NCBI GenBank assembly: GCA_951406725.2
Contig: OX597823.1
Location: forward strand, 12,462,001 to 12,526,000
From: Octopus vulgaris
Taxonomy: Eukaryota
DNA: 64,000 bases
Direction of reading: 5' to 3'
Below are positions 181 through 59,200 of this stretch, one piece after another. Within the stretch, counting starts at the first letter, position 1. Every line of letters starts with the position of its first letter. Both the position numbers and the translations under genes were made by a program. Below the pieces are notes generated by a model. That model had not been told where the DNA came from and did not search any database. It was given only the letters and a program-made list of their open reading frames with translations.

Positions 181-359
181 ATATATATATATATATATAT
201 ATATATATATATATATATATATATATATATATATATCAACAATCAAGGAACGGCCATAATAGGCCATTCACCCACTAGAAATAACAGCCAAAAGCTTTAA
301 CTGCAAAATAACATTAATTCCGTAAACCAGGAGAAAATTGAAAAACGTTTACCCTGTAA

Positions 360-464
360 TTTCTTAGACGATGCACCGTTTCATCTACCGTTTAATGGTA
401 AACTAACCTGATTAAATTAAATCAAGCCAATCCGCCATAGGCCCTTAGACTCATCAGTAAGAAA
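360..464 (-). ncRNA. Type I hammerhead ribozyme motif (mirror copy of 486-590)
   Basis: Reverse-complement copy in the left arm of the palindrome. Confidence 0.85.
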
Positions 465-485
465 TAGCCTATAAGAAATAGGCTA

Positions 486-590
486 TTTCTTACTGATGAG
501 TCTAAGGGCCTATGGCGGATTGGCTTGATTTAATTTAATCAGGTTAGTTTACCATTAAACGGTAGATGAAACGGTGCATCGTCTAAGAAA
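486..590 (+). ncRNA. Type I hammerhead ribozyme motif with long stem II
   Basis: tttctta-CTGATGA-gtcta[58-nt hairpin]tagat-GAAA-cggtgcatcg-TC-taagaaa. 7-bp stem I, canonical core, GUC cleavage triplet. Confidence 0.85.
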
Positions 591-1074
591 TTACAGGGTA
601 AACGTTTTTCAATTTTCTCCTGGTTTACGGAATTAATGTTATTTTGCGGTTAAAGCTTTTGGCTGTTATTTCTAGTGGGTGAATGGCCTATTATGGCCGT
701 TCCTTGATTGTTGATGTTGAATTTAAAAATGGTTTATGACTATTTAATTTTTCCCACTGGGCCGCTGGTGGCAAAAGAATTCTACAAAATTTTTTTTTTG
801 CCACCCTATATTGATTAATTATATATATATATATATATAATATTAAATTAGAGATAAAACCACTATTAGGTAAATCAAACAGTGAAAAACATAAGCCAAT
901 ACATAAAATTAATTTAAAAATATAAAAGTTAAAAATAAAAAATTATTTAAATAATTTAAACTTATAAATTATATATATATATATACACACACATATATAT
1001 ATATATATATGTATATATATGTGTGTGTGTGTGTGTGTGTGTGTGTGTGTGTGTGTGTGTGTGTGCGTGTGTGT

Positions 1075-1323
1075 AGGCGCAATGGCCCAGGGGTTAGGGC
1101 AGCGGACTCGCGGTCGTAGGATCGCGGTTTCGATTCCCAGACCGGGCGTTGTGAGTGTTTATTGAGCAAAAACACCTAAAAGTTCCACGAGGCCCCGGCA
1201 GGGGATGGTGGCGATCCCTGCTGTACCCTTTCACCACGACTTTCTCTCACTCTTTCTTATTTTAGCCTGCTCGCTTAGCCAGCGGTGTGGCGAAGCTCAT
1301 TGTTTTAGCCTTCAAATGACGCC
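1075..1323 (+). mobile_element. tRNA-derived SINE, family C head, tail type 2 partly inverted
   Basis: A-box TGGCCCAGGGG and B-box GGTTTCGATTCC. Head matches 50716-51100 and 12651-12810; tail matches 58450-58627. Confidence 0.8.
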
Positions 1324-2301
1324 TAGTCGAAAAAAGAGAAGAAAAATAAAATATATATATACGCGTATGTGTGCGCGTGTAAACATAGTACACCCTTTGG
1401 TATGGTCTGACGCACTCTGTGCAAGGCCTTTCCTCACATTAAAAGCCTTAGGCGCATATATTTATTATAAGTTACATTCTAAGGCCTACGTTTATCAGAG
1501 AAGAAAAAAGACTCACGCACACAACCACAGGCACCTATATATACATAGATACAAATTCATTGGGTCACCGGTAGTTGATATTTCCTCATTTCATTCTTCA
1601 TGGGCCGCATTTTAATGTTGCACTAATTCATAAATTCATAAATTCATAAATTCCCCACCCCGTTACACCCACATGATATTCATATATTTTTCATAACAGT
1701 TTGAGGAATCAAGAAAGTTTCGTTTCGAATCACAATGTATTTTAAACATTTTAAAAGTTGTACATATGAATGTGAATTTCAAAGAGATACATTTATATTT
1801 ATTTTGTTATCTTGAGTAACATTATGATATCATTCCTGAAAAATAATCTGTTGAAGTCTAACATCTGCAATGTTCCAACTGAGCCAATTTGAAAGTTAAT
1901 AATGATTTTACAAATTCTAATCCTATTATTGACTTATTTATTTAATCGCTTTATCTAATCTATCTAATCGTAACGTCATTTACTCGTTTTCATATTTAGA
2001 ATAAAATGTCAGAAATCGTAATTAAATATGATGGACATCTTTAATCAGTCTAATAACACAGAGCAATGGCAGAATCAATAAAACAATGGACATAAATATT
2101 ACAAGTTTACTATTACCTCCCCTTGCGGCCTCCGTTCAAATCCTACCGGAGAGCAATGCAGTTATGGCTGAGTGTTGTTTATATTCATGCTTATTCTACC
2201 ACTTTCTATCCGTTGACATCCATGGGGTGCAATTTGTACAGAGACACATTGTGCATTGAGACTACGTGATTAGCAATAAATGAAGTTCAAATTAGTTAAA
2301 A

Positions 2302-2698
2302 CTAACAGTATCGCCCGGCGTTGCTCGGGTTTGTAAGGGAAATAACTATATAAGCATTTTTAGAGATGTAAAGTATAATAGCCATCTCAATATGGTTAAC
2401 CACAAAGGGGTGGGTGTTACTGTAGCTTTTTACGTTCTGAGATTTAATAATAAATTTTTAGAGAGTTACTTCCCGTATATATGCCAAAAATGCATTAAAA
2501 AATGGGAAAAATTGATGGTAAATTTTTTTAAAATCGTAGACTCATCGTAGACGCGCGCTAATACCCAGAAGGGCTCGATATGAATCACGACTATAAGATA
2601 CCCGGTTTTGGTTATACTGCACCGCAAAATGTGGGAGTAGTTAGGAATCTAAATCGTAGGAGACAGACAGCACACAACCTCACTTTTATATATAAAGA
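2302..2698 (-). mobile_element. Non-autonomous Helitron (~400 bp), copy 1
   Basis: Minus strand: 5'-TC start, subterminal hairpin CCCGAGCAACGCCGGG, end TTAG (CTAG in the other copies), inserted between A and T. Four near-identical copies in the window. Confidence 0.85.
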
Positions 2699-57022: not shown

Positions 57023-57074
57023 TAGAATTATCGTTATTTTTGTTGTTGTTGTTGTTGTCGTTAGTAGTAGTAGT

Positions 57075-57228
57075 CATCATTGTTCGACCGTGGTCGAGAC
57101 AATGGAATTTACCATGCTACGCCAGATTTCACGGTCCATCATGGCATTACGGAGGTCCTGTTGCTGGATGCCTGTATCCCTGGAGATTACATCAGGGTAG
57201 GAGAGTGTGCGCCCTCTGGTATTGCGAG
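57075..57228 (-). mobile_element. RTE-like LINE extreme 3' fragment
   Basis: Minus strand: RNTRGRTLSYPDVISRDTGIQQQDLRNAMMDREIWRSMVNSI...**, then a (CTA)n tail. Confidence 0.7.
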
Positions 57229-58046
57229 AAGTAGTAGTAGTAGTAGTAGCTGATTACTTCATTAACCTTTCAGTCAATCAATCAGTTGGTTTCTCAGTAT
57301 ATTTTCGTCACCATTTGCAACTTAGTCAATGACATGCATTCATTCTACCAGGTCTTTCTAGTTGCGCATGTCTCTAGGTCTCCAAACCAATACAAGTAGC
57401 ATACTCGTATTTACAAGTAGCAGAGGTTTGGCGGCGTATTCTTTTGGTTTTGTGTGGATATGCGAGTGAACATGCGTGCGTCATGGTGAGAGCGCGAGGG
57501 ATGTTTGAAAATCCGCAAGGGATGTGTAGTCATGCTTGTGACAGTAAATACGACACTTCTAGTAACTATTTTCGTATTTCCGTATTTACCAACAGATCTC
57601 CCTCTTCGTTCTTATCTGTCTCTATCTCGTACTTATTCGCATATACAGACACGTGTAAAACTCACCTACATGCGCATACATGGATTTATGGACAACACTA
57701 AACACACACACCCATATGCAACTGCATGTAAACACACACACACACATATAAACACAAACATAGCCACCCACGCACACACATAACACACACGTGTCCACCC
57801 ACCTATACATTGCTTCCACGGCATATGTATCCGGGTTAGATAGTAGTAAAAGGGTCATTTCTAATCGTAAATATCTTTCAGGTTTATGAATACATATCAT
57901 TTGACCTACATGTATAAGTGTATATATGAGTCATGCCATCATAAGCGTTTGGTTAGGAATTGTGGAATGGGAAAGTAGGTGACCCCATCGACTATGGTAC
58001 CCGATTGGCACCTTCATGAAGGATCTCATACCACGATACCTATATA

Positions 58047-58274
58047 AGGCGGCGAGCTAGCAGAATCGTTAGCACGCCGGGCGAAATGCTTATCGGTATT
58101 TCGTCTGCCGCTACGTTCTGAGTTCAAATTCCGCCGAGGTCGACTTTGCCTTTCATCCTTTCGGGGTCGATTAAATAAGCACCAGTTACGTACTGGCGTC
58201 GATATAATCGACTTAATCTGTTTGTCTGTCATTGTTTGTCCTCTCTGTGTTGAGCCCCTTGTGGAGTAAAGAAA
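58047..58274 (+). mobile_element. SINE family A, full length, 11-bp TSD
   Basis: TSD gatacctatat at 58035-58045 and 58277-58287. Confidence 0.92.
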
Positions 58275-58449
58275 GAGATACCTATATTTAGAGATATTAA
58301 TGTCTCCTCCAACACAAAGAATACATAGACAAACATGCCAAAAAACTCGTGTCCCTCTATAGAGAGATGGTATGTTCAGGTTATTGTGGCAGTGGTGGTG
58401 GGATTGTTGTTATTTCTTTCGTATTTTCTGTTGAGTACCGGCTTCTGTT

Positions 58450-58627
58450 CAGGGATGGTGGTGATCCCTGCTGTACTCTTTCACCACTCTTTCTCTCACT
58501 CTTTCTTCTGTTGGCCTGCTCGCTTAGCCAGCGGGGTGGCGTCATTCGAAGGCTAAAACAATGCGAACGCATTGTGACCAGCGATGTGTAACAACATCTG
58601 ATGGTCTGGTCGGTCACGTGATCACGT
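58450..58627 (+). mobile_element. SINE family C 3' part (tail type 2)
   Basis: ggtgatccctgctgtactc...ggtcacgtgatcacg. Confidence 0.82.
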
Positions 58628-59000
58628 TATTTATGTATGTATGTATGTGTATAGATGTGTGTATGTATCATGCATAGAAGCACACTCACACACACACACA
58701 CACATACACACACAGAAGGCTGTTTTCTAAAAAATGGAAAATCCAGAAATCCAGGCCACTTCCGGTCCCAAGGTTGCCGGATATTTTGTCAGTCATCGTG
58801 TAATTTATCTATCTTATCTATCTATAAATGTTATCTATCTATGAATCTTATCTACTTGCCTACCGACCTACCTACCTACCTACCTACCTACCTGCATACC
58901 TACCTACCCGCCTACCTACCTACCTACCCACCTACCTACCTACCTACCTACATAGCTACCTACATATATATATATATATATATATATATATAATATATAT

Positions 59001-59200
59001 AGTTAATCCAAACATGAACAAAGAGAAAACACAACGCGAGGTCGTGGAACAAGTATAGTGTTATTGGACGCTCAGGAAAGGAAAGAAAGAAAGAGGATTT
59101 AACGTTTCGAGCGGAGCTCTTCGTCCGAAATATAGAAAAAGAAAAGTTCAAGGAAGGGAAGAGTGAGAAAGAAAATCGCCACGATAATACGCGGTCATAT
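59001..59200 (-). mobile_element. Solo pLTR of a related PLE family with compact HHR variant (59097-59131)
   Basis: attt-CGGACGA-a-gagc tcc gctc-GAAA-cg-TT-aaat; between (TA)n tracts. Confidence 0.7.

Follow-up and report, generated by a model that had tools for sequence, protein, structure and literature searches.

The question raised by this 64-kb window of the Octopus vulgaris genome (that is, the whole stretch of 64,000 nucleotides that was analyzed) is what the hammerhead-like motifs scattered along it are and how they came to be there. In our judgment it is very probable that they are type I hammerheads that mark the 3′ ends of insertions in (TA)n, which are of two sorts: truncated autonomous Penelope-like elements (PLEs), and non-coding tandem retrozymes that were likely reverse-transcribed and inserted in trans by Penelope-like enzymes. 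A hammerhead-like core was found at all 17 coordinates given in the preliminary description, and the 17 motifs are distributed over 15 insertions (Table 1). Four motifs were classified as canonical type I hammerheads with three stems, based on the core CUGANGA / GAAA / UH together with stems I-III, and the same descriptor gave no hits in 100 local dinucleotide shuffles. With a relaxed descriptor, which permits one core change and/or an additional A after A9, 10 of the 17 motifs were recovered, versus 0.6 ± 0.7 (maximum 3) in shuffled and two in reversed sequence, and the earlier claim that these motifs are real was upheld by both counts. Of the seven motifs missed by the relaxed descriptor (11408, 15101, 15207, 20093, 22651, 43722 and 52082), six still matched repeat families by homology, and repeat-family membership was found for 16 motifs overall; the motif at 20093 has an unpaired stem I and no sibling in a 0.8-Mb genome sample. 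That sample (799,800 bases) contained 53 motifs compared with 2-12 in its shuffles, and 11 strict motifs compared with none in 10 shuffles. Extrapolation yields ~160,000 motifs genome-wide, and the window is therefore only ~2.4-fold above the genome average. An Rfam scan of the window listed no hammerhead family among the best 150 of 384 matches. The Rfam matches were dominated by microsatellite-like miRNA models, and the direct-repeat families found in the window were all microsatellite.

Table 1. Hammerhead-bearing insertions of the window and their principal motifs, in order of position.
Positions	Strand	Feature	Details
235-822		Family A retrozyme insertion in (TA)n	Part of 491-nt non-coding tandem unit; short arm 235-472(-) ends 132 nt past cleavage site, long arm 478-822(+) ends 237 nt past
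359-465	-	Canonical type I hammerhead, family A	Stem I of 8 bp and stem III of 5 bp; stem-loop II long
485-591	+	Canonical type I hammerhead, family A	Mirror copy
9455-9657	short arm -, long arm +	Family C two-armed stub, Hydra-type PLE 3′ end	Core CCGACGA at 9519
11348-11491	+	Decayed hammerhead (CCGAAGA)	80% like intact-core sibling; parent element not traced
15071-15372		Family G two-armed stub, older Hydra-type PLE end	Ends +33, +98; two hammerhead-like motifs, stem II irregular
15400-15612	-	Family D 3′ end, young Hydra-type PLE	Canonical hammerhead 15524-15611; long tail
20090-20155	-	Hammerhead-like core	Stem I unpaired, no sibling found; weakest of list
22640-22705	-	Decayed hammerhead (TTGAAGA)	Four genome-sample matches; parent not traced
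23272-24887	-	Degenerate Neptune/Nematis-type PLE	Disrupted RT and endonuclease fragments followed by pLTR; minimal hammerhead 23375-23414
28354-28604	-	Family E 3′ end	Hammerhead 28390-28480; parent not traced
33802-35456	+	B1, 5′-truncated young Neptune/Nematis-type PLE	97% like ORF-bearing copy; GIY-YIG ORF end 34476; minimal hammerhead 35311-35350 (CTGTTGA+A); 3′ end 103 nt past cleavage site
35533-36135	-	Family F retrozyme, single-armed	~1.5 units of 404-nt non-coding tandem; canonical hammerhead 35709-35781
42228-42383	+	B2 pLTR stub	Minimal hammerhead 42234-42273; 75% like B1 pLTR; ORF link inferred
43593-43793	long arm -, short arm +	Family C two-armed stub	Core in 43722 region
52012-52185	-	B2 pLTR stub	Decayed minimal hammerhead; 75% like B1 pLTR; ORF link inferred
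58964-59237	-	B3 stub	Minimal hammerhead 59095-59133 (CGGACGA+A, with CTGACGA+A in siblings); putative parent, from motif likeness

Conservation of pairing and predicted folding were considered separately. In the D group (13 hammerheads), 94.5% of the cells were paired compared with 31-52% in slid controls, and five of 21 pairs had changed on both sides, a count to which no probability value is attached since the sequences are related. The hammerheads of A and its relative A3 likewise differ by compensatory change, with all three stems kept despite the changed letters. In the predicted folds of A, D and F, stems I and II form and the catalytic junction does not, and the folds of C, E and G were no better than those of shuffles. 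Cleavage is predicted and would probably require a dimer or the help of a protein, and the family-fixed core changes in B1 (A6U) and in C and A3 (U4C) may lower activity.

The motifs were sorted by parent element, the clade names Hydra, Neptune and Nematis being assigned from motifs. Seven of the 17 represent the 3′ ends (pLTRs) of families linked to Penelope-like ORFs of the Hydra or the Neptune/Nematis type, and three more resemble those ends; non-coding tandem retrozymes (491 and 404 nt) account for only three. For four motifs (family E, 11408, 20093 and 22651) the parent element was not traced. The motifs had been described as several unrelated families; there are indeed several, but they are not all unrelated, given that a single B group holds five of them and that families A and F have a downstream motif in common.

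The Penelope-like link suspected earlier was borne out by families B1, C, D and G, which continue upstream into GIY-YIG ORFs and are therefore 5′-truncated autonomous PLEs. In 29 of 30 B1 loci the hammerhead lies 547-887 nt downstream of the endonuclease, and 28 of these 29 end at +103 within (TA)n. Five B1 ORFs of 929-1200 aa were identified, the protein matching Pfam RVT_1 (1e-7) and, weakly, GIY-YIG, and in four of five long loci the pLTR flanks both sides, in the partial-tandem layout of endonuclease-bearing PLEs. The ORFs contain ADKGG, CSRPRCRTC and CISCSLC...H...H, corresponding to the DKG, the CX2-5CxxC linker and the CCHH of the Neptune/Nematis type, and at the level of sequence the B1 pLTR and hammerhead are shown to belong to an intact element of that type. 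This element is abundant, as a protein search with family B returned 17,622 candidates; a Hydra-type endonuclease query returned 19,688. Family D has a 1090-aa ORF with Hydra motifs, and D-group ORFs, which had no Pfam match, are flanked by hammerheads. Compared with the list for the Hydra clade (PMC8557442), the ORFs have RWK/RWR (RWR in D, RWK in its 70% relative), DKT, a CxCX5C linker, CxxC/CxH and no CCHH, and insertion is into (TA)n. Families C and G have a Hydra-type endonuclease upstream, and their Hydra assignment is made from that endonuclease end. For family E, at least 1.5 kb of non-coding sequence lies upstream in its relatives, and no ORF was reached in five larger loci.

The proposal that the motifs mark ribozyme-bearing non-autonomous units holds, in the loci fetched, for A and F and is not supported for most of the others; these are truncated PLE ends of the ordinary sort, and it is chiefly their abundance that is remarkable. 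Family A occurs on many contigs in arrays of up to seven full 491-nt units with 96-100% identity; position 491 of one unit leads directly into position 1 of the next, so that the unit is closed, and the number of units varies. The family F unit is 404 nt, with up to one full unit between two cleavage-site anchors. In both families, units a few hundred bases long, every one with a single type I hammerhead, are joined head to tail, the longest stop-to-stop frames are 68 aa (A) and 67 aa (F), and the GC contents are 37% and 33%, respectively. A, its relatives A2 and A3, and F are shown to be closed non-coding units. None of 31 A loci had a PLE protein match, and the four matches in 25 A3 loci were all neighbors (downstream, on the opposite strand or beyond (TA)n). 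In the fetched loci neither A nor F had sequence in common with an autonomous element, so the candidate partner enzyme is deduced from the insertion pattern. Contigs from four sequencing runs (X1, X2, X5 and X6), which may be of RNA, cover the A unit, and three span its junction; tandem DNA gives the same result, and these contigs were not counted as evidence.

The adjacency to (TA)n reported previously exceeds a random background: 26 of the 53 motifs in the sample are followed by (TA)4 at a distance of at most 250 nt, compared with 21.8% of random positions (p ~1e-5, for hits that are not independent), and exact junctions between family A and (TA)n numbered 232 and 664 genome-wide, with none in reversed controls. 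Within (TA)n, family A consists of two head-to-head arms that end 132 nt and 237 nt past the cleavage site. A long end was paired with a short end in 40 of 42 two-armed insertions (A, A3, C, D and E), with no long plus long or short plus short pairs, in a count whose end-size windows were chosen post hoc and whose D query was biased toward long ends. An unbiased count of exact-junction pairs on two contigs (C1 and C2) gave the same pairing in 12 of 12. The exceptions are L028 and L336; in addition, at one complex locus (L353) both sides have short ends. An inverted 5′ copy together with a one-sided tail, which is a PLE trait, was seen in A, A3, C, D and E. By comparison, none of 23 B1 copies had an inverted arm, each having a single 3′ end, and none of 20 F loci had two arms despite the motif in common with A. 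A pure fold-back origin of the inverted arm was rejected as a general rule by one locus (L288) in which neither arm can derive from the other; fold-back may account for the symmetric centers of short palindromes such as 235-715. Palindrome centers differ between copies, and the outer ends are fixed. Hairpins lie 15-17 nt before the long end of A, both ends of A3 and the end of F, but such hairpins are not consistent in B, C and D and the fold at the A short end differs, and for these reasons we do not claim a general start-site signal.

We propose that a GIY-YIG enzyme would cut both strands of a (TA)n tract, that a dimer would prime reverse transcription at two fixed internal RNA sites, one per strand (+132 and +237 in A), and that both cDNAs would stop early and then be joined head to head. 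In family A the template would likely be an RNA, circular or multimeric, that had been processed by the hammerhead and was copied through several rounds, and the copying enzyme would likely be of the Hydra type. As one retrozyme family has the same paired ends as Penelope-like elements, the retrozymes were likely copied by Penelope-like enzymes, and the junctions, as read from the assembly, support the published hypothesis that PLEs mobilize retrozymes. The fullest form of this proposal, which we put at somewhat short of even chances, is that A is an active retrozyme for which a Hydra-type dimer cuts (TA)n, its subunits start at different fixed sites and a 491-nt circle is copied by rolling, with arrays arising in one step. 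If so, the A insertions would provide direct evidence, from a genome with >100,000 hammerhead motifs, that PLEs insert retrozymes by a rolling-circle route and that PLE priming uses its sites asymmetrically.

A rather less likely but still serious account is that A enters as approximately one unit via PLE enzymes and that the arrays expand later, by unequal crossing-over or slippage. Growth after insertion is the model favored for vertebrate retrozymes in the accessible text of Li et al. 2026 (10.64898/2026.07.22.740005), and in octopus it would fit a private variant common to two adjacent units of one array (C29) and the alternation of G310T in another (L015). The 1.4 substitutions between units of one A insertion, compared with 6.2 between insertions, count in favor of our main explanation, as do the private variants common to opposite arms, but the low distance within arrays would also fit local homogenization. 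Weighing against later growth, full units occur in both opposite arms of an insertion and carry identical private variants, the exact 3′ ends are kept, the arrays are dispersed and young, and many insertions have fewer than two units, on which crossing-over has little to act.

It is improbable that there is no separate retrozyme and that A and F derive from an autonomous PLE that was not reached, as tandem repeats of its pLTR or 3′ UTR. Such an element would agree with the seven motifs proved to be PLE ends, with A ends whose behavior matches that of the C and D ends exactly, with the 1.5 kb of non-coding sequence before truncation in family E, which demonstrates that long non-coding tails exist, and with the choice of loci by similarity, mostly with 1.5-kb flanks. 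Yet the A unit is self-closing through as many as seven full units, in variable number, the 5′ ends observed are inversion joints or flanking repeats, and PLE protein matches are absent from the 31 A loci and are neighbors in the 25 A3 loci.

More doubtful still is the earlier suggestion that the local Neptune/Nematis-type RT/GIY-YIG mobilized most motifs as non-autonomous cassettes. The element in question is abundant, young and targeted to (TA)n, and F has a single 3′ end as it does, but Hydra-type ORFs belong to C, D and G themselves, B is itself autonomous, and the inverted arm that B lacks is present in A, in the two-armed pattern of the Hydra type. That the motifs are chance matches or MITE-like DNA palindromes without ribozyme meaning has a negligible probability, for while seven motifs fail the relaxed descriptor, ~7 chance hits are expected per 0.8 Mb in a relaxed scan and several inserts are near-perfect palindromes, strict motifs outnumbered shuffles by 4 to 0 and 11 to 0, stems show compensatory changes, and palindrome centers vary around fixed outer ends.

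Much of what the window contains has published counterparts, and its description as an unannotated system was too strong: PLE hammerheads, animal retrozymes and an octopus Hydra element with a hammerhead are already in the literature. The last of these, Hydra-1_Obim, has a (TA)n preference (Craig et al. 2021, PMC8557442). The octopus Hydra-type elements share with that clade the motif set listed above, with CxxC and CxH placed around E and N, and a canonical hammerhead with a palindromic 3-bp stem III. The clade is described there as comprising few families, generally <3 kb, whereas the octopus D group is ~4.6 kb (4,650 and 4,623 nt from hammerhead to hammerhead at L283 and L286), with 950-1090-aa ORFs and a long stem-loop II. 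Minimal hammerheads like those of octopus, with an extra base between positions 9 and 10.1 and a tiny palindromic stem III, are described for metazoan PLE pLTRs in the accessible parts of Cervera and de la Pena 2014 (PMC4209133), mostly as single truncated copies and in some cases as opposite-strand pairs separated by 100-700 bp; the change of A6 to U in B1 is not among the variants described in those parts.

Animal retrozymes are presented in the available text of Cervera and de la Pena 2020 (PMC7229834) as non-coding, low-GC tandem sequences proposed to be moved by PLEs, a link that in the literature, so far as the available sources extend, consists of co-occurrence and pLTR similarity. A and F have the same few-hundred-base units with one type I hammerhead each as the non-LTR retrozymes of that paper and of Li, Clavereau and Pollet 2026, whose sampling, according to the accessible text, includes no mollusc. 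The accessible portions of these two papers do not describe the junctions, inverted arms, two fixed ends and (TA)n targets seen in A. Retrozyme circles are reported there as expressed in coral, mussel and axolotl, whereas octopus A and F are known here from genomic sequence. What A adds is a young retrozyme bearing a PLE insertion signature with mapped start sites, and because intact candidate enzymes of two clades occur in the same genome, retrozyme insertion can be put to a defined test in vitro. In the work of Frangieh et al. 2024 (PMC11167929), a purified PLE cleaved both DNA strands and extended them, using two internal sites, and the octopus insertions resemble the PLEs of that study and of Craig et al. 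2021 in having an inverted 5′ copy, a tail confined to one end and two start sites. Their tails are ~65-120 nt compared with 30-40 in those PLEs, and, unlike in the PLE reports, each octopus arm uses one start site almost without exception, in a near-strict long and short pairing that constrains the PLE mechanism and extends to a non-coding retrozyme.

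The strict type I hammerhead descriptor returned four convincing motifs in the window and the relaxed descriptor returned ten, compared with 0 and 0.6 ± 0.7, respectively, in 100 shuffles that left microsatellites in place. All ten relaxed matches were already among the 17 motifs of the preliminary description, whose observation of hammerheads is confirmed, and shuffled sequence did not reproduce their density. The relaxed descriptor did not pass the other seven motifs, six of which match repeat families; the remaining one, 20093, has no repeat-family match. In the genome (2.80 Gb, 227 contigs), 80 evenly spaced 10-kb stretches (799,800 called bases) contained 53 relaxed and 11 strict motifs, whereas 10 shuffles gave 2-12 (mean 7.2) and 0, respectively. 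Extrapolation from this sample gives ~160,000 net relaxed motifs and ~39,000 strict motifs (19,000-69,000 by Poisson, a range that takes no account of the clustering of four of the 11 in a single array). The window is motif-rich yet not special, since its ten relaxed motifs compare with 4.2 expected from the sample (p 0.012). The proposed adjacency to (TA)n also held, as (TA)4 lay ≤250 nt downstream of 26 of the 53 sampled motifs versus 21.8% of random positions.

Features of the window, with strand where recorded
Position	Strand	Feature	Remark
235-822		family A insert	part of 491-nt unit
359-465	-	strict hammerhead
485-591	+	strict hammerhead
15524-15611	-	strict hammerhead
35709-35781	-	strict hammerhead
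3423-3519		weak strict-descriptor match	rejected; absent from later scans
33772-34476		GIY-YIG	Pfam E 0.0009, below cut-off
35311-35350		B1 hammerhead	A6U in core
42236, 52082		hammerhead motifs	75% like B1 pLTR
59097		hammerhead motif	resembles B1 pLTR by motif only
23272-24887		degenerate PLE
26437-26659	-	detached RT fragment	70% like B1; ~1.5 kb from degenerate PLE
32960-33100, 36150-36300		two repeat copies with CTGACGA	no GAAA/UH in range; not a hammerhead under the descriptors used
17889-18123		nested 94-, 31-, 21-bp tandem duplications	low-copy sequence
55413-55820	-	frame with HxxxxC...W...WDF...PDI motifs	no Pfam match; presumably left over from a LINE with a restriction-like endonuclease, for example Dong/R4
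1075-1330, 27220-27590, 28060-28240, 29470-30070, 31040-31760, 50027-50397		SINE-like repeats	some in 183-184-bp tandem; those measured (27300-32400) had 100-150 matches in the 0.8-Mb sample

Family A, a closed non-coding unit (longest frame 68 aa; 37% GC), had 1,885 genome candidates, of which the 40 scored were at 99-100% identity, and occurs in arrays of up to seven full units; PLE (Penelope-like element) protein queries found no match in its 31 loci. Full units are 1.4 substitutions apart within an insertion (30 pairs) versus 6.2 between insertions (270 pairs), and private variants are common to opposite arms of the same insertion; some variants of adjacent units may reflect local duplication at a later stage or an error in the assembly. 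Its relatives A2 (493 nt) and A3 (487 nt; 68-73% identity, 2,447 candidates) have the same two 3' ends and keep all three hammerhead stems despite changed letters. A wider group of A-like units (loci L148, L176:7600-9170, L177, L081 and L297:2700-3330), in which the closer look covered A2 and A3 only, has a common motif just 3' of the hammerhead and a CTAG...hairpin...ACCCTAT block ahead of the long end. Family F (404-nt unit, 691 candidates) ends at +174 to +181 past the predicted cleavage site in 19 of 20 loci and at that site in one (L216, around 1250), as if templated by a cleaved-RNA end; none of the 20 loci, two of which are one insertion, has an inverted arm. Outside the window, a further family of minimal hammerheads (agacac CTGA.GAA ggctgg...cagcc GAAA cg TT gtgtt; L148, L166, L169, L188, L247) is frequent and has no nearby downstream (TA)n.

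The preliminary description had interpreted the motifs as non-autonomous cassettes, a reading that is partly supported and probably stands for the non-coding units of A and F. Seven of the 17 motifs come from families linked to an ORF, counted as such because B1, C, D and G reach endonuclease ORFs (outside that count are family E, 11408, 20093 and 22651, which led to no ORF-bearing parent, and the B1-like 42236, 52082 and 59097). The window GIY-YIG query gave 17,622 genome candidates, with 97-100% identity among the 150 best. Of 30 loci fetched (L091-L120), 29 have the B1 hammerhead 547-887 nt downstream of the endonuclease, and 28 of these 29 terminate in (TA)n, 103 nt beyond the cleavage site. 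Open frames of 929-1200 aa occur in five larger loci, four of which have the same hammerhead-bearing terminal repeat (pLTR) on both sides; the DKG, CX4CxxC linker and CCHH motifs of the ORF are consistent with Neptune or Nematis, based on the motif list of PMC8557442. Very active B1 carries A6U in 29 of 30 loci, unlike its B3 siblings, which retain A6; U4C is family-wide in the cores of C and A3.

Family D (1,178 genome candidates at 99-100% identity) extends 1.3 kb upstream into a second, different endonuclease, with 19,688 genome candidates, and C and G each reach such Hydra-type endonuclease ends in two loci. Long D-group copies have 950-1090-aa ORFs with RWR/RWK, DKT, CxCX5C, CxxC and CxH and without CCHH, which are the Hydra features of PMC8557442, and no Pfam match was found for these ORFs; open ones in L281, L282 and L283-L287 (contigs C11, C9, C19, C4, C2, C15 and C1) hold long Asn-rich inserts. 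Family E has no ORF over ≥1.5 kb upstream in five larger loci. Among 13 D-group hammerheads, 94.5% of cells were paired versus 31-52% in slid controls and both sides had changed in five of 21 pairs, covariation that is supportive only, because the sequences are related and were chosen by a pairing descriptor. Predicted folds were stable for A, D and F (z -3.1, -3.1 and -2.2), with the catalytic junction not formed, and those of C, E and G were no better than shuffles.

Two-armed insertions have both 3' ends pointing outward into (TA)n, at fixed distances past the cleavage site: +132/+237 in A, about +130/+234 in A3, +37/+108 in C, +34/+154 in D, +37/+110 in E and about +33/+92 in G. Duplicates of one insertion were removed before pairing (kept: A, 15/30 loci, one swapped for the larger L130; A3, 23/25, one without anchor; C, 29/30; E, 19/20). 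A long end was paired with a short one in 40 of 42 two-armed insertions (A 9/10, A3 6/7, C 11/11, D 12/12, E 2/2) and like ends in none, with size windows set after the data were seen and a D query biased toward long ends. Independently of those windows, exact A end-(TA)n junctions numbered 232 short and 664 long genome-wide, with 0 in reversed controls. Both types of end were listed in full for contigs C1 and C2 only (36 short, 92 long), and there all 12 pairs ≤10 kb apart were long plus short, head to head. An exception is L353 (G000:C4:46281500-46288000), a complex A array with short ends on both sides and a mirrored internal rearrangement. In L288, neither arm was copied from the other, because the short end, without the tail, is on the 3.8-kb arm and the tail is on the 550-nt inverted one. 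Unlike A, A3, C, D and E, B1 lacks an inverted arm (0 of 23 visible 5' ends).

A purified PLE, predicted to be dimeric, cuts AT-rich DNA on both strands and extends both. It initiates at two internal sites, which mark the limits of the genomic tail, and its hammerhead requires the protein for cleavage but is dispensable for insertion in vitro (PMC11167929). We infer that each subunit primes one strand, from one site, and that the truncated cDNAs are then linked in head-to-head orientation. Family A RNA, probably a circle or multimer, is likely copied in trans, the likely partner being a Hydra-type enzyme.

A literature search, without most subscription papers, found no report on cephalopod retrozymes or retrozyme insertion junctions. 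The supplement of PMC13282606, a source giving PLEs as 6.83% and 190 families, does not mention 'ribozyme', 'hammerhead' or 'retrozyme', and 'octopus', 'inverted', 'microsatellite' and 'target site' do not occur in the main text of PMC7229834, which belongs with PMC4209133 and 10.64898/2026.07.22.740005 to the related retrozyme and PLE hammerhead literature. Hydra-1_Obim is listed as bearing a hammerhead and preferring (TA)n, the PLE tail is described as often present at one end only, and the Hydra clade, here with its many endonuclease candidates, has been described as small and generally <3 kb (PMC8557442). The window motifs are PLE pLTR hammerheads and animal retrozymes, both already known kinds; the part worth following is the junction evidence linking a young retrozyme to double priming of the PLE type.
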